From contig OZ024747.1 of NCBI GenBank assembly GCA_964016885.1, forward strand, positions 7,502,001-7,566,000: DNA of 64,000 bases, read 5' to 3'. Below are positions 7,995 to 41,955 of this stretch, one piece after another. Both the position numbers and the translations under genes were made by a program. How positions within the stretch are numbered: the first letter of the stretch is position 1; each line of letters begins with the position of its first letter. The notes beneath the pieces were generated by a model, which was not told the origin of the DNA, did not search any database, and was given only the letters and a program-made list of their open reading frames with translations. Origin of the DNA: Eledone cirrhosa. Its lineage: Eukaryota.

Positions 7995-10900
7995 CTAAGG
8001 CGGGTAAAATTCCCGAGATCCATGGACGAGTTCTCTCCAGCGGTCTCTGTCCCTCATTATCGCTGCCATGTCCTGCGTCTCCAACAGACCAGTGTCTGTC
8101 CTTAGGGCATCAACATATGTTAACCTTGGTCTTCCTCTTCCAGTGTGTCCATGTAGGGGCTCCCAAAGGAGCACGGAGTGCAATGTCAACTCTGGATGTC
8201 GGTGAGCATGTCCAGCCAACCTCAGTCTCCTCTGTGTCACTTTTGAGCTGACTTTTGGGAGGCTCCCATACAGCTCTGAGTTTTTCATCCTCAGTGTATA
8301 CTGATTAATGTTCAGAGCCATCCTCAGCATTCTCGTGTAGCACCCATCCACCATCTGAGTGAGTCTCTTGGTCAGTGTCCAAGTCTCAGACCCATACAGC
8401 AGCACAGACTCCACTACAGCAATGAAGAGGCGGATTTTCAGGTCTCCACGAAGGTCCGACTTCCACACCGATCTCAAGCTGTGGCACGCCGCCCAGGCCT
8501 TGCTCTTCCTCTCAACCACATCATCTTCCGTATTCCCAATCTTTGCTCCCAAATACAGGAAGTCCTCAACCAATTCCAGCGGCTTCCCGCCTACATTAGT
8601 GATCCCCTCTGGCTTCTCAACATTCTCTACCAGATATTTTGTTTTAGTCTCATTCATTCTCAGCCCCACACTCATCGACACAGTCTCAACCTCCCGCATC
8701 AAATCCTCTGCCTCCTTCACTGTATTTGTCACCAAAACTATGTCGTCGGCAAATTCAGCATCCGATACCTTTTTCGCCCCAACTCTCCTGCTCCGAGCCG
8801 GTGCTACAGTAAAGCCAGAGTCCTGGTGTTTCTCCAGTGCAAGGCGCATACAATAGTCCACTACGATGATAAAAAGGTAGGGAGCCAATGTATCTCCCTG
8901 GAGCACTCCAGCCAGTATCTCAAAGAACTCTGTCATCCCATCAGGTGTAATGACTTGGGCTTTGGTGTTGGTGTAGAGCAGTGATATCAGGTCCACTATC
9001 CTCTTGGGGATTCCATAAGCCTGTAAGATCTTCATCAGGCAGTAACGGTCCACAGAATCAAAGGCCTTCCTAAAGTCAATGAAAACCATGACCGCAGGAA
9101 GGCACTTTGCTCTAGCTCCCTCTAATATCCTCCTCAGCATCAGGATGTGACTGGTGGTTGATCTACCCTCTCTGAAGCCGTTCTGGTTGTCCCTGAGCTT
9201 CTTCTCCATCTCAGGCTGGATCCTGTTAAGAATCATCCTGTTGAGGGTCTTTGCCACAAGTGACGTCAGTGAGATCCCCCGGTAGTTGTTGGTGTTAGAG
9301 AGATCTCCCTTCTTTGGCACTGGGACGATGTTACTGATCCTCCACTGATTCGGGGCAACTCCTTTCTCCAGTGCCCCGTTACAGAACCCCAGGATGATAT
9401 CATCAAAATCACACCACTTCATCACCTCTGATGCTACTCCATCTTCTCCATGAGCCTTGCCCTCCTTGATCTTCTTCTTGGCTCTCTGAAGCTCCTCTCT
9501 GGTGAAGGGCTCTGTCTCAACATCCAGTTCCTCAAACAGCCGCCTGATCTCCCCAGTGCTCTGGGCTGTGGAGGGTGGCTCTCCTAGTAGGGTCCTAAAA
9601 TGGTCTAGCCATTTCCTCTTCCTATCCTCGGGCCCCGTTCCCTGGATCTGACTCGAACACCTTTTCTTCCTCCCTGTGATCTCGTTGATGATCATCCAGC
9701 TCTCCTTACATCCAGATCTGTCAACCGCTCTCTCCACACTTCTGATCTTCTCTATCAGTGCCTCCTCTCTGACCTCAGTGTAAGCGGTACAGAGCTCTTC
9801 CCTCATCACCTCCACAGTCTCCATCCTCTCCTCCGTAGGATCAGCATAGAATTGGTCCCTGGCAGCTTTCAGGTGTTCTCTGGCTGCACACACTTTTGGG
9901 TCTGCAGAGCTGACGTGCTTCCCTTTGTTCTTTTTCCTCGGCACCAGGGTTTCACTTGCTTTCGCCACTGCATTGGTGAAGTGCCCGTACCTCCTCGTCA
10001 CACTCTCCTCAGTCCATCCAATCTCTCTCTCCTCTGACTCTCCACACAGAGCACTAAACCTGTTTCTCACTTCCACTGTGAACCTCTCCTGTAGCTTATC
10101 ATCTTCCTTGAAAGCTCCCCAGTCATAGATTGTTCTCCGGGGCTGAGCCTTGCTCTTTCTTAAGCTCACGCGGACCTCACTCATAACAAGCCGGTGGTCA
10201 CTACCCAGTGTACTGAAATAGCTGTATGGTTCCGTGTTCAGAACACTATTCCGCCACTTTTTCCTCACCAGAATGAAATCAATCTGGGACTTGGACAGGT
10301 GCATATCTGAGATGTAGGTCCACATCTTCCCCAGATTCTTCCTAAACCTTAGGTTGGTCGCCATCAAGTTCGCCTCCAGCAGGGTGTCTCTCAGTAGTCT
10401 TCCATTTCGGTTGGTGTTGTTATGGAAGTACCAGCAAGGATCTTCACTGCCCTCCTTACTCAGATGTGCACTGAAGTCCCCCAAAACAAGCAGGATATTG
10501 TGTGCCTGAGTGGTGTTGACAGCTCTACACACTTCCTCATGGAACTCCTCGGCATTCACATCACTGTCCCCCTCGGTTGGACTATAGGCTGAGATGACTG
10601 TCAGTCTTGGGTTTCCATTGAAGGTCACCCTCAACACTCGCGGGGAGATAGGCATTATTTCCCTCACCAACAGATTGGTTTTTGCACTGAACACAAAACC
10701 CACTCCTCCTACTGCAGCATTTGTTGTGTTCTTCACTGCCGATGTAGTGATGAGCTGGCTCTTCCTCCCGATCATCACACTCCTCACGGGCTCATCGTGT
10801 AGAATCCTGTGTTCTTGGATCGCAAGTATCTGTATACCACTCTCCTCGAACAGATGTCCCAACTCCTCTCTCTTCTCCAGCGTTCGAATAGTCCTCACAT

Positions 10901-11090
10901 TCAAAGTGCCCATTTTGATGGCTCTTCTGCAGGACAAAACTGCATTCTTTATATTTGTCTCAGAGACAGCTGATCCATCATCGACTGGCCCTCTCTGTGG
11001 CTCTAAGCCAGCAGAGTCATAACGACCAGGCTGCTCCTTGACAGTGTAATTAGGGGCTCTAACCCTAGTGCTGTTAGATCGACTCTCCAT
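7995..11090 (-). CDS. RTE LINE ORF: AP endonuclease plus reverse transcriptase (1031 aa from the first ATG; frame open from 11129)
   Basis: APE motifs GTLNVRT, IQEHR, YSPT, GDFSA, IDFIL, SDH; RT motifs PKKGD, YRGISL, QNGFR, FIDFRKAFDSV, GVLQGDTLAPYLF, FADD, YLG; RTE C-terminus LLYGSETW...RRLRLAGH...GRP...W. No stops or frameshifts. Confidence 0.95.
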   Translation of the reverse strand: MESRSNSTRVRAPNYTVKEQPGRYDSAGLEPQRGPVDDGSAVSETNIKNAVLSCRRAIKMGTLNVRTIRTLEKREELGHLFEESGIQILAIQEHRILHDEPVRSVMIGRKSQLITTSAVKNTTNAAVGGVGFVFSAKTNLLVREIMPISPRVLRVTFNGNPRLTVISAYSPTEGDSDVNAEEFHEEVCRAVNTTQAHNILLVLGDFSAHLSKEGSEDPCWYFHNNTNRNGRLLRDTLLEANLMATNLRFRKNLGKMWTYISDMHLSKSQIDFILVRKKWRNSVLNTEPYSYFSTLGSDHRLVMSEVRVSLRKSKAQPRRTIYDWGAFKEDDKLQERFTVEVRNRFSALCGESEEREIGWTEESVTRRYGHFTNAVAKASETLVPRKKNKGKHVSSADPKVCAAREHLKAARDQFYADPTEERMETVEVMREELCTAYTEVREEALIEKIRSVERAVDRSGCKESWMIINEITGRKKRCSSQIQGTGPEDRKRKWLDHFRTLLGEPPSTAQSTGEIRRLFEELDVETEPFTREELQRAKKKIKEGKAHGEDGVASEVMKWCDFDDIILGFCNGALEKGVAPNQWRISNIVPVPKKGDLSNTNNYRGISLTSLVAKTLNRMILNRIQPEMEKKLRDNQNGFREGRSTTSHILMLRRILEGARAKCLPAVMVFIDFRKAFDSVDRYCLMKILQAYGIPKRIVDLISLLYTNTKAQVITPDGMTEFFEILAGVLQGDTLAPYLFIIVVDYCMRLALEKHQDSGFTVAPARSRRVGAKKVSDAEFADDIVLVTNTVKEAEDLMREVETVSMSVGLRMNETKTKYLVENVEKPEGITNVGGKPLELVEDFLYLGAKIGNTEDDVVERKSKAWAACHSLRSVWKSDLRGDLKIRLFIAVVESVLLYGSETWTLTKRLTQMVDGCYTRMLRMALNINQYTLRMKNSELYGSLPKVSSKVTQRRLRLAGHAHRHPELTLHSVLLWEPLHGHTGRGRPRLTYVDALRTDTGLLETQDMAAIMRDRDRWRELVHGSREFYPP

Positions 11091-11290
11091 ATTTCTTTTC
11101 AATGGCTGACAATACCTTACCGGCGCCACTCGAATAAGGTAGTTATTTAACCCATAAATGGAGCCCTAACAGGTACTACCACCCCGGGCCAGGGCAGACC
11201 TGGGAGTCATGACAACTAAGGGGTAACTCCATATTCCCCACATCTCCTGAACTCCCGAACTGGAGCCTTGCCACTGGATGTAGTTTAATG

Positions 11291-11292
<2 letters not shown>
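7995..11292 (-). mobile_element. Full-length RTE-type LINE inserted in a (TA)-rich minisatellite
   Basis: About 200-nt 5' UTR plus one APE-RT ORF whose stop codon directly abuts (TA)n; both flanks carry the same TACATATATATTTATATACATATACAC unit. Confidence 0.9.
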
Positions 11293-11333
<41 letters not shown>

Positions 11334-11464
11334 CATATACACATATTTATATGTGTATATATATATATATATACATATATAACATATATATTTATATACA
11401 TATACACATATTTATATGTATATATATATATATTACATATATATTTATATACATATACACATAT

Positions 11465-11535
<71 letters not shown>

Positions 11536-11630
11536 CATATACACATATTTATATGTATATATATATACATATATAACATATATATTTATATACATATACA
11601 CATATTTATATGTATATATATATATATATA
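11293..11630. repeat. (TA)n-based compound minisatellite
   Basis: About five copies of TTTATATACATATACACATATTTATATG separated by variable (TA)n; the same unit occurs at about 7915-7965 and 12560-12605. Confidence 0.85.
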
Positions 11631-11919
11631 AAAACAAATAACGAAACGAAATTAAATTTCGTTTCGCTTCTAACTCACTTTTGTATGACTGACGCTTAAA
11701 CAATTAAGTTAAAGTGTACATCTACATATGTATACGGAAGTATTAGTATGCATATAAATACACACATGTATACATATGTACATGTACTGAGTTTTTCACT
11801 AGACACTTTACAGTGAGTGTCAGCTAGTCTGTATGTAACCACACAGACGGACCGGGTTTTAGAGTCATACGAGTTTTCAAGGAAACACATTTCCTCTATT
11901 CTCCAGAGGGCCAGACAGG

Positions 11920-11964
11920 AATATTGGACTAGTTTCGATGTTATTACATCTCATCAGCAATATT
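11920..11964 (-). ncRNA. Minimal type I hammerhead ribozyme (family A)
   Basis: Exact reverse complement of the 12282-12326 motif. Confidence 0.88.
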
Positions 11965-12281
11965 TACCCATCTTCCGGCTTCTCTGGAGAATTGTAAAAG
12001 CACATATCGTTATATGCTTTTTCTATGAAAATTAGTAGTGGGTAGACTAATTTGCATAGAACGTGAGTCATTGTACGCACCGGTTCAGCGGAAACGATAA
12101 AAACAAATAACGAAACGAAATTAAATTTCGTTTCGCTTCTAACTCACTTTTGTATGACTGAACCGGTGCGTACAATGACTCACGTTCTATGCAAATTAGT
12201 CTACCCACTACTAATTTTCATAGAAAAAGCATATAACGATATGTGCTTTTACAATTCTCCAGAGAAGCCGGAAGATGGGTA

Positions 12282-12326
12282 AATATTGCTGATGAGATGT
12301 AATAACATCGAAACTAGTCCAATATT
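12282..12326 (+). ncRNA. Minimal type I hammerhead ribozyme (family A)
   Basis: AAUAUUG-CUGAUGA-GAUGU(AAUA)ACAUC-GAAA-CUAG-UC/CAAUAUU: perfect 7-bp stem I, 5-bp stem II, full catalytic core, GUC triplet, palindromic ACUAGU stem III. Predicted cut after 12319. Confidence 0.9.
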
Positions 12327-12603
12327 CCTGTCTGGCCCTCTGGAGAATAGAGGAAATGTGTTTCCTTGAAAACTCGTATGACTCTAAAACCCGGTCCGTC
12401 TGTGTGGTTACATACAGACTAGCTGACACTCACTGTAAAGTGTCTAGTGAAAAACTCAGTACATGTACATATGTATACATGTGTGTATTTATATGCATAC
12501 TAATACTTCCGTATACATATGTAGATGTACACTTTAACTTAATTGTTATATATATATAAATATATATATATTACATATATATTTATATACATATACACAT
12601 ATT

Positions 12604-12708
<105 letters not shown>

Positions 12709-12892
12709 ATACCTGGGGAGGGTCATATTTGTGTAATACATATATATAATTTATCAAAGTTCTTTCGTTGCACATCTGCAACATCGTCAGTAGTATATAT
12801 ATGTATATAGTAATAATAATAAATTTGAAGACTAAAATCCAAAGAGGGCTCGATAAGGATAAATATATATCAAATATATAAGAACCGTAGAG

Positions 12893-12985
12893 CAAATATT
12901 TATTAAAATAACAGATTTAAGTTTAAGCAAAGAATCGCAGCGATTCTTTGCTTAAACTTTAATCTGTTATTTTAATAAATATTTG
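12893..12985. repeat. Near-perfect palindrome (46-bp arms, 1-nt spacer)
   Basis: CAAATATTTATTAAAATAACAG...AGAATCGC-A-GCGATTCT...ATATTTG with one mismatch. Confidence 0.9.
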
Positions 12986-19407: not shown

Positions 19408-19877
19408 AATAAACCTTTCAAGGATTTACACCAGTCCAGCCTCCTATTATTTTATTTCATTTATAATTAACTCCGTATTCGCACCACCAACTACACAAAC
19501 GAAGATGGATGAACTGCACTGCGTTGAGTACTCTTCACAATATTACACCAGGATTGACCATACGGAATGACCAGTTCTATCCAGTGGTGAACCAACAAAC
19601 CTAAAGATATATGTATATAAGGTATCTATTTTTGAAGTTCTGGTCAACTTTATTTAGTTACCTACCTAGCTATGTGTGGTTACACACTTGTAAAAATTAT
19701 CTCCTGTGATTATTTATGTTTATTTATATGTTAATCAATCTCTAGTTATTATATATATATATATGTGGGTGTGTGTGTGTGAATGAAGTAATTCCGTCGA
19801 AAAAGTCCAGGAAAAAAGAGTGCTCTATGTAGGTAACAGAGCTTAATAGTTATGTAATAAACAACGTAATGCAATTA

Positions 19878-19937
19878 TTCCATTTACCAGTGGTTTCTTA
19901 AAAGCAAAAAATGTTGCTTTCAATCCTCAGAATGAAA
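19878..19937 (-). ncRNA. Type I hammerhead ribozyme (family B)
   Basis: Mirror copy of 20003-20062. Confidence 0.78.
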
Positions 19938-20002
19938 AAATCCTGGTCTGTTTATTAAATTTGGATTTTAAAAATCCAAATTTAATAAACAGACCAGGAT
20001 TT

Positions 20003-20062
20003 TTTCATTCTGAGGATTGAAAGCAACATTTTTTGCTTTTAAGAAACCACTGGTAAATGGAA
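20003..20062 (+). ncRNA. Type I hammerhead ribozyme (family B)
   Basis: UUUCAUU-CUGAGGA-UUGAAAGCAA(CAUUUU)UUGCUUUUAA-GAAA-CC(ACU)GG-UA/AAUGGAA; 7-bp stem I, 10-bp stem II, GUA triplet; U-A instead of the usual G-C at the base of stem II. Confidence 0.8.
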
Positions 20063-20087
20063 TAATTGCATTATGTTGTTTATTACA

Positions 20088-20166
<79 letters not shown>

Positions 20167-29419: not shown

Positions 29420-29584
29420 CTTAACGTCGTAACAGTTGAGACCGACTTCAGTAGCTATAATTTCCACTTCAAACTCCGAAGGATTTCGGTTTGCCTGGAA
29501 GTTTTTCTCCAGGATTTCTCTCTGATCGTCTTTCACACTTGGTAAAAGGTTGGCGGGTGTTAAATGGGCCTGGATTGCAGCCAT
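29420..29584 (-). CDS. HOPX: HOPX-like homeodomain-only protein, first coding exon (55 aa)
   Basis: MAAIQAHLTPANLLPSVKDDQREILEKNFQANRNPSEFEVEIIATEVGLNCYDVK resembles HOPX (EDQVEILEYNFNK...LIAAEAGLSEEETQ); ends at a phase-0 AAG/GTAAGA donor just before the expected helix-3 xWF; ATG in GAAATGG context. Second exon not located. Confidence 0.75.
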
Positions 29585-33027: not shown

Positions 33028-33089
<62 letters not shown>

Positions 33090-33115
33090 TTGTAATAAAC
33101 AACATAAGGCAATTA

Positions 33116-33176
33116 TTTCATTTACCAGTGGTTTCTTGAAAGCGAACAAATTTAGCTTTCAATCATCAGAATGAAA
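33116..33176 (-). ncRNA. Type I hammerhead ribozyme (family B)
   Basis: UUUCAUU-CUGAUGA-UUGAAAGC(11-nt loop)GCUUUCAA-GAAA-CC(ACU)GG-UA/AAUGAAA; all stems Watson-Crick. Confidence 0.85.
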
Positions 33177-33410
33177 AAATCCTGGTGTATTTATTGACAT
33201 TGGATTTTAAAAACAAAAATATAATCACATAAGAATAAAAATAAATGTAAAAATTATTATAAAGTTGACAGCGATACAGGCAACAAATAAATGAACAAAC
33301 ACACGTGGTAAGCAATACACACAATTGTACATACACATATATACATAAAAATAAATACATACACACACATACACATACACATACACATACATGCACACAC
33401 ACATATACAT

Positions 33411-35325: not shown

Positions 35326-36000
<675 letters not shown>

Positions 36001-36578
36001 CAGACAGATAGTGAGAGAGAGAATGAGAGAATGATTTAGTTTTCAATCATTCTTTCGGTTTTCAGTATTTGTTTTATATTTTGTAATTACTCCCACCACC
36101 ACCACCACACACACACCGTATTCTTATTTTTATTTTTGCTTTTATTTTGTTTTCTTATATTCTGTAACTTTTTTATTTTGTAAATTCTAACTTCGCAGTC
36201 AACCGTGTACGGCCACTTCTGTAAGCGGGGGGTGTCCGGCAGACAACTTGATCAGATTATAACCTACAATCCCCACTTTCTCTACAGCTAAACATCTCTT
36301 TCGAGCCCCCATCCCCATTCTCTTCCTCTCTTTCGCTCTCTCTATCTATTTATCTCTCTCTCATACGCTCTCTCCCTCTCCATCTCTCTCTCTCCACCCC
36401 CACCCCCTCTCTCACACACTACCTCTTTTTCTCCCATTTCTGTCTGTCTTTATTTTCATGTTATATTTTTTTCTATGTTATATAACAGCATGTAAAATAC
36501 CACAGCTGCGAGAAGGATTACTACAGAAACGGTCATTACACAATAAACGAATGTTATACTGAAGTCCATCTTTTACTC

Positions 36579-41655: not shown

Positions 41656-41955
41656 TTACATGATACGTCCCAGGTAGATAGTGTCTTCAGGACCAAGGTC
41701 AGGATTGATGAACTGGAAGAACCCTAAACGGCTGTAGAACTCCAGCAGATACTTGTCCCCAACGTTCAGCTCACAGAACACTCCAATAGAGCCATTGGTC
41801 TTCAGCGCGGAGAGACAGGCAGCCAACAGCCGGTATGGGATGGTCGGGTCGCAGATACGACCAGGGAGTATATCCATCCGAATCACCGATGGGTAGCGTT
41901 GAAACACACTCTCTGGAATACATGGTGGTTGGTTGTGGAAACTGAGTACCACCTC
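41656..41955 (-). CDS. OGA: O-GlcNAcase, last coding exon (pseudo-HAT domain end)
   Basis: EVVLSFHNQ...YPSVIRMDI...LLAACLSALKTNGSIGVFCEL...LLEFYSRLGF...YLGRIM*; (CT)n-ACAG acceptor, TAA stop; matches the human OGA C-terminus. Confidence 0.95.
   Translation of the reverse strand, partial: EVVLSFHNQPPCIPESVFQRYPSVIRMDILPGRICDPTIPYRLLAACLSALKTNGSIGVFCELNVGDKYLLEFYSRLGFFQFINPDLGPEDTIYLGRIM

Follow-up and report, generated by a model that had tools for sequence, protein, structure and literature searches.

A young non-coding hammerhead retrozyme of Eledone cirrhosa with two-armed insertions, probably made by twin priming with a Penelope-like enzyme

The insertion and its surroundings

The minus strand of the window (the whole 64,000-nucleotide stretch of Eledone cirrhosa DNA analysed here) carries at 29420–29584 a coding exon of a HOPX-like gene, followed by an intron of about 70 kb; the next exon lies at C7:7,461,697. 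The gene assignment comes from a Pfam homeodomain match (E = 5e-7) and from exon 2, which matches homeodomain-only protein (E = 5e-4); a search of solved structures with the in-window coding exon alone returned no match. Upstream and on the same strand are exons of the O-GlcNAcase (OGA) gene, from 41659 to beyond 61208. The insertion described below lies in the HOPX-like intron; OGA was considered as the host gene and rejected, since its last exon ends at 41659 and the element is outside it. A non-LTR retrotransposon that has no relation to the insertion has an open frame of 1,056 aa (endonuclease and RT, Pfam RVT_1; 7998–11165, minus strand) at a distance of 460 nt. Penelope-like elements (PLEs) have left two hammerhead-bearing terminal-repeat stubs of an older Neptune family, N1 (19846–20094 and 33029–33225; stem III ACCACUGGU), the former being a small two-armed insertion whose two ends differ, and a 5'-truncated Neptune-type fragment with the GIY-YIG end (35329–36042, minus strand), relatives of which have 715-aa open frames at L098 and L099. 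A fold-back stub of another repeat family at 12810–12985 recurs beside the retrozyme in L055 and near a PLE open reading frame in L184.

The insertion is built from a 469-nt unit, numbered 1–469 along the hammerhead strand, that is from window position 12096 down to 11628. Arm A (11628–12161, minus strand) holds 1.14 units: unit positions 405–469 (12097–12161) and then one full unit (11628–12096), the sense of which is the hammerhead strand and which has a predicted circular fold of −157.7 kcal/mol. The arm ends 3' at site A (unit 469), directly against the left (TA)-rich target repeat (11292–11627). Arm B (12158–12547, plus strand) holds unit positions 9–398 and borders the right (TA)-rich repeat (12548–12704) with its 3' terminus at site B. 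Both 3' ends thus face outward, and the arms are joined 5'-to-5' at a 4-nt inverted microhomology (12158–12161) by which they overlap. A target-site duplication is unresolvable in the (TA)n. The stretch of about 71 nt between start sites B and A (11628–11698, minus strand) is present in one arm only and corresponds to the PLE-type ‘tail’; a perfect terminal hairpin (unit 430–456; 11641–11667, minus strand) lies 13 nt upstream of site A, with a second copy at 12110–12136. The geometry given in the first-pass annotation was reproduced: a 65-nt direct repeat at period 469 (11628–11692 and 12097–12161) is 100% identical with no extension on either side, and inverted arms of 390 nt (11699–12088 and 12158–12547), spaced by 69 nt, are 100% complementary and switch strand at the 4-nt microhomology. 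In a comparison over 11800–12200 only, the unit is present in contigs of runs X2, X3 and X6, whereas X1 gave no match, and no contig spans 12164–12200; the X2 contig, of 499 nt, goes round the unit once, and those of X3 and X6 differ from the unit at many positions.

As the copy is intronic, read-through is plausible, and HOPX-like pre-mRNA would hold a 390-bp hairpin, in line with the double-stranded RNA that had been proposed; the folding was performed on the plus strand, the arms being complementary on either strand. The antisense arm comes first and each strand has one hammerhead, so the window copy is predicted neither to cut the host transcript nor to release a monomer: it is predicted to be a dead end, with its ribozyme masked in the host intron.

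The hammerhead and its family

Both hammerheads are of type I, with a 7-bp stem I, CUGAUGA, a 5-bp stem II, GAA, ACUAGU and C17. There is one on each strand, as annotated: that of arm A at 11964–11920 on the minus strand (unit 133–177; predicted cut between 11927 and 11926) and that of arm B at 12282–12326 on the plus strand, with the predicted cut at 12319/12320 as originally placed. The Rfam model Hammerhead_HH9 matches both (E = 7.1e-6, 31.8 bits) under its gathering score of 52 bits; no family reached its gathering score in the Rfam scan of the window, and matches to miRNA and snoRNA families, likewise below it, were taken as chance hairpins. In the monomer, stem III has 2 bp and a loop of 2 nt; in the dimer it becomes a 6-bp palindrome, which in the model fits the proposed dimer-only folding. 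Such dimer dependence is known for hammerheads of this kind from the passages on them in PMC4209133 and PMC7229834. The energy model gives −16.4 kcal/mol for the active dimer, −14.4 for two inactive monomers and −17.8 for the inactive cofold minimum; since the active dimer lies above that minimum, self-cleavage of the unit may be weak. In the in vitro work of PMC11167929, as its insertion experiments are described, PLE insertion did not require ribozyme cleavage.

The unit has 36% GC by base counts and folds as a circle with a z-score of −12.6 against 60 shuffles. Two-sided changes were seen in five of 148 predicted pairs, including hammerhead stem II, among 15 units that are related sequences, so that the independent pair-change events are few. 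There is a mild hotspot of private variants at unit 193–196 (positions 194, 195 and 196 each hit three to four times), in the stem that closes the hammerhead domain. The octamer ATGCAAAT at unit 40–47 (window 12050–12057, minus strand) is kept both in the retrozyme family and in the cousin clan described below, and is possibly a promoter element or merely a conserved stem. The promoter reading follows the snRNA-type element of newt satellite 2; a literature search yielded no support for it in the case of ATGCAAAT, and it stands as a lead.

The 3.0-Gb genome contains 1,463 exact hammerheads of the family. With 39 of 678 candidate places scored, at least 370 matches stand at the top identity of 99–100%, which puts the repeat structure beyond chance. 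Insertion ends number about 2,300, with 2,297 site-A ends that have no following unit (a few being point changes inside arrays); 1,045 site-B ends were counted on the forward strand alone, reverse-strand counts being inflated by overlapping matches, and the totals for A and B are about equal. These end counts take in older subfamilies. The window copy is a young insertion in a family with thousands of copies. A sister subfamily at 86–89% identity follows the same end rule (see below), and a cousin non-coding clan, with units of about 434–480 nt and 1,498 hammerhead matches, is homologous across the whole unit. In this clan (L166–L195, L119 and L147) the cut triplets are GUU or GUA and the two ends are about 58 nt apart; in three loci, judged by eye, they are paired one per side.

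The longest stop-free sense stretch of the unit is 84 codons. Arrays of up to 14.7 units run head to tail with no open reading frame between units, and in none of the examined loci is a PLE open reading frame joined to the unit in frame or through a shared terminal repeat. The reading of the unit as a separate retrozyme is borne out in that the family is non-coding and no examined copy has a PLE open reading frame as part of the element. At L134 (C1, ∼95,621,000–95,658,500) the same 469-nt unit forms a satellite of at least 37 kb, 96–97% identical, with a higher-order period of nine units (4,226 bp); it is a retrozyme made into a satellite by local amplification. Two hammerheads 4,226 nt apart on C1, tried as flanking a coding partner, belong to this array and its nine-unit period. 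The family has the features of non-LTR retrozymes, namely tandem hammerhead units, no coding capacity, low GC with a self-paired fold, and dispersal with target duplications of more than 4 bp, and the class is assigned here from these sequence features. It is very probably a PLE-mobilised retrozyme.

Ends, arms and junctions

All of the variation in the ends is confined to the 5' junctions: the 3' ends are fixed at two sites, A (unit 465–469) and B (unit 391–401), about 70 nt apart, where circularly permuted ends had been expected. Of 86 classified groups, 55 are two-armed insertions in which the arms meet 5'-to-5' in (TA)n; 50 of these are A+B, one is B+B, none is A+A and four have an unclassifiable end. 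Since L199 and L200 go back to a single insertion that was duplicated, the independent classifiable two-armed insertions number 50, of which 49 are A+B (binomial p = 4.5e-14 against independent choice). The other 31 groups are single-armed or complex at the threshold used; by eye, a short or diverged second arm makes A+B in L132, L133, L137, L149 and L152. The second arms of L133, L149 and L152 are vestigial, extending about 10–20 nt from site B, and some ‘single-armed’ insertions would therefore also have had two primings. There are at least two B+B insertions (L196 and, by eye, L111). Since the first 37 loci are the best-scoring hits of a query that includes site A, and hence a biased sample, an unselected set of end motifs was examined: over the first 78.5 Mb of C1 (55 A, 59 B) there are 29 A+B pairs within 15 kb, two B+B and no A+A, and one of the two B+B pairs is a pair of adjacent A+B insertions (L197), the other being a true B+B. 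The tail, of about 70 nt, is accordingly at a single end, as in PLEs. At L045 (5560–5600) the site-B end is stuttered, with a 10-nt repeat of the start-site sequence before the (TA)n, as if the enzyme had re-primed with telomerase-like slippage.

Thirty-one young two-armed insertions provide 62 5' ends, which are distributed uniformly along the unit (KS p = 0.91); one of them falls no more than 5 nt from the ribozyme cut. The 65-bp repeat therefore arises incidentally, from where the arm in the window happened to be truncated at its 5' end, and the ‘terminally redundant’ unit of the first-pass annotation is not a fixed feature of the element. The same distribution points to a template with intact cut sites and tail-to-head junctions. 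A linear monomer cut at the hammerhead was rejected as the template, as there is no 5' clustering at the cut and the arms run through it; the suggestion that a tandem or circular RNA was copied over more than one unit length is supported. The arms pass both intact cut sites and tail-to-head junctions. Recurring non-adjacent variants within the long arrays of L035, L044 and L067 allow for growth after insertion, and arrays may come from a heterogeneous multimer template or may have grown later.

The 31 arm junctions comprise 16 with 1–4 nt of microhomology, five blunt joins and ten with filler; among the 21 filler-free joins, 14 have at least 2 nt of microhomology, against an expected fraction of 0.175 (p = 9e-7). 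Target duplications could be read in four insertions with readable flanks: 9 nt (L146), 12 nt (L143), 13 nt (L210) and about 15–16 nt (L211). Compared with its empty site, one single-armed insertion, located in a Neptune 3' UTR, is blunt. Inspection of the flanks showed microsatellite or AT-rich targets of the PLE type.

Arm haplotypes are concordant in 29 of 31 insertions, compared with 0.17 by chance, and the two misses are single changes; both arms of an insertion come from one source. In three of the 31, both units of one arm carry a variant missing from its partner; the two arms may therefore stem from different RNA molecules. Between the strands, private variants are symmetrical (A>G 19, T>C 15, C>T 28, G>A 32), which is the spectrum expected of DNA mutation after insertion. 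Family copies show no ADAR-type A>G excess (19 A>G against 15 T>C), and an ADAR footprint in retrotransposed copies was rejected on this symmetry.

Mode of insertion and partner enzyme

We read the family as a young non-coding 469-nt hammerhead retrozyme, the arms of which are made by twin priming with a trans-acting Penelope-like enzyme, and give this reading a probability of about 0.72. Its central component, twin priming at two fixed sites, is likely in its own right. The leading rival is a fold-back, in which one cDNA or antisense template folds over to copy itself and the product is afterwards resolved by an endonuclease at the second fixed site. Self-priming was proposed for head-to-head PLE inversions in the relevant section of Arkhipova et al. 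2013 (PMC3846280), and the tail was ascribed to EN-mediated resolution in that of PMC8557442. The window copy is compatible with it, arm B lying inside arm A with a loop of 73 nt; 26 of the 31 insertions formally have one arm nested, short true fold-backs occur at some junctions (L063 and L201), and a common haplotype of the two arms is predicted equally. In the five remaining insertions (L032, L049, L051, L199 and L203), however, neither arm contains the other, which contradicts a fold-back there unless a second switch back to the RNA is added. The loops would span 38–439 nt without a short bias (100 nt or less in only three of 26), and in 17 of the 26 the copy must stop 397–6,498 nt before the end of the first arm, yet exactly at the other site. 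The arm-specific variants of three insertions also count against it. The original account of the inverted arm as a template switch gives way on the same grounds, as the second arm has a fixed 3' end of its own. Two cDNAs, each primed by one target end and joined by microhomology, would explain the common haplotype, the non-nested arms, the loop lengths and the exact stops; the arm geometry favours two separate primings over self-priming, and we regard a fold-back as improbable.

The unit might instead be a solo terminal repeat (pLTR) of a coding PLE, its copies being truncated stubs, as the first-pass annotation had allowed. The architecture, tail, target and hammerhead are all PLE-like, the genome has 58,860–84,570 candidate PLE places, and the inspected fraction of the family is the 39 of 678 scored candidates plus further loci. 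Against this, units follow one another without an intervening open reading frame in the arrays and in the satellite, the stop-free stretches are short, and a hammerhead-variant search for a coding relative gave only the non-coding sister and cousin families; no RT and GIY-YIG open reading frame is attached as part of the element in the examined loci. We consider a pLTR very unlikely. Still less credible is an assembly or amplification artefact, or the meeting of two independent insertions in one (TA)n tract. Such tracts do gather many PLE-type insertions, with adjacent independent ones at L031 and L197; dozens of insertions with differing junctions nevertheless obey one A+B rule, which extends to the 86–89% sister subfamily, the target duplications enclose both arms, the arm haplotypes agree, and one junction has been kept through a segmental duplication (L199/L200).

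In the twin-priming mechanism, a Penelope-like (probably Neptune-type) enzyme supplied in trans would make staggered cuts in the two strands of (TA)n. One DNA end would prime a cDNA at site A and the opposite end a further cDNA at site B. These primings would be coupled, a protein dimer being one possible link, and the 3' ends of both cDNAs would anneal to give the arm-to-arm join. The RNA would undergo dimer-dependent self-cleavage, and the template could be either a re-ligated circle or an uncut multimer, the variant patterns being compatible with both. In the relevant parts of Frangieh 2024 (PMC11167929), a PLE protein with a predicted dimeric structure cleaves both strands in vitro and extends them, beginning at two internal sites which delimit the tail; the start site did not differ between top and bottom strands there, so the strict A+B pairing is not predicted by that system. 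A bolder proposal, which we hold only tentatively and think less probable than not, is that Penelope-type integration is obligately two-headed: the enzyme dimer would give A to one DNA end and B to the other, and each head would run rolling-circle on a hammerhead-made RNA circle, possibly with two circles held by the palindromic stem. If this were true, the one-sided tail, the inverted arm and the retrozyme arrays would be products of one step and the 469-nt RNA would be a minimal template.

Two Neptune-type queries found 58,860 and 84,570 PLE candidate places in the genome. We take these proteins to be of the Neptune clade from a Zn-finger motif; Pfam assigned no family to them. A young coding Neptune family, N2 (L216–L231), has intact 821-aa open reading frames that are 97–99% alike and targets (TA)n; it pairs its own ends, A'+B', in five of five two-ended insertions, with a tail of about 90 nt (by eye). 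It also has a perfect hairpin 12–13 nt before its outer start site, as does the retrozyme. In N1 the tail is about 73 nt (by eye). Comparison of the unit with the termini of three coding PLE families (N1, N2 and P1) gave no sequence match, and the enzyme class is thus inferred from the insertion signature: the partner is probably Penelope-like and Neptune-type, with N2 as the first candidate, by age only. Two apparent chimeras were rejected. L033 is an insertion into an N2 3' UTR, and the partner at L063 is a Poseidon-like P1 copy, which is only 97–98% like its nearest relatives and hence older than the arms. Candidate retrozyme–PLE chimeras are seen at L045, L055, L100 and L153.

The second start reportedly falls at variable internal sites in the twin priming of L1, which Ostertag & Kazazian are said to have described in 2001: both cut strands prime cDNA, the two cDNAs cover different parts of the RNA, and the product is a 5' inversion with a microhomology join inside one target duplication. 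Our insertions resemble it in that two target-primed cDNAs would be joined by microhomology within one target duplication; they differ in that the second start is fixed and in that the arms overlap in sequence, each able to span several units.

The family is closest to the animal non-LTR retrozymes as characterized in Cervera & de la Pena 2020 (PMC7229834) and Li, Clavereau & Pollet 2026 (bioRxiv 10.64898/2026.07.22.740005): non-coding tandem type I hammerhead units of low GC, a strong self-paired fold, dispersed copies from monomers to long multimers, target duplications of more than 4 bp, and PLEs in the same genome. The 469-nt unit is longer than the 170–400 nt given in PMC7229834 and falls in the range of 51–972 bp given in the 2026 preprint. 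The consulted sections of either paper describe no two-armed insertions with a pair of fixed start sites, and the preprint, in its account of tandems, favours local amplification, whereas here multi-unit arms are found within dispersed, end-precise insertions. With the EN+ PLE insertions, as described in passages of PMC3846280, PMC8557442 and PMC11167929, the family shares head-to-head arms, a tail at one end, AT-rich or (TA)n targets, target duplications of about 8–16 nt, a hammerhead whose helix III is palindromic, and a tail delimited by two internal start sites. Unlike them it has no open reading frame, and its tail is about 70 nt rather than 30–40 nt, a published range that is also exceeded by the local coding Neptune tails (about 73 and 90 nt). 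Where these descriptions have the tail as optional or often one-sided, the pairing counted here is near-strict, and the arm geometry argues against the self-priming proposed for PLEs. Chlamys PLEs such as MRC1, as treated in part of Craig 2021 (PMC8557442), are likewise non-autonomous passengers with multicopy head-to-tail insertions; their 3' sequence is as a rule also found in an autonomous family, and they are without canonical hammerheads, whereas no sequence common to a coding family was found here.

Much of this is in print for coding PLEs, where the inverted copy, the one-sided tail and the two start sites appear in the corresponding sections of PMC3846280, PMC8557442 and PMC11167929, and PLE mobilisation of retrozymes is proposed in those of PMC7229834 and bioRxiv 10.64898/2026.07.22.740005. 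How PLEs make tandem and inverted insertions and the one-sided tail is called undefined in the discussion of the matter in PMC8557442, and the mover of animal retrozymes was argued from co-occurrence and sequence relatedness (PMC7229834; bioRxiv 2026.07.22.740005, in the parts on mobilisation). We found no counted A+B pairing, test against self-priming or PLE-type two-armed ends of a retrozyme in the literature surveyed, and a paper on Chlamydomonas structural mutation (PMC9977147) offered nothing pertinent; subscription papers and supplements may contain them.

The retrozyme copies bear the full PLE insertion signature, with start sites paired almost strictly one per end, and the family gives junction-level evidence both on the mechanism of PLE insertion and on the enzyme that moves animal retrozymes. 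It is a known kind of element and a useful mechanistic handle, more useful than surprising: the in vitro PLE assay that already exists could conveniently take this 469-nt non-coding RNA, whose two start sites are mapped, as its template. For the genome of Eledone cirrhosa, insertions in their thousands would mean long perfect RNA hairpins in introns, such as that of the HOPX-like gene.
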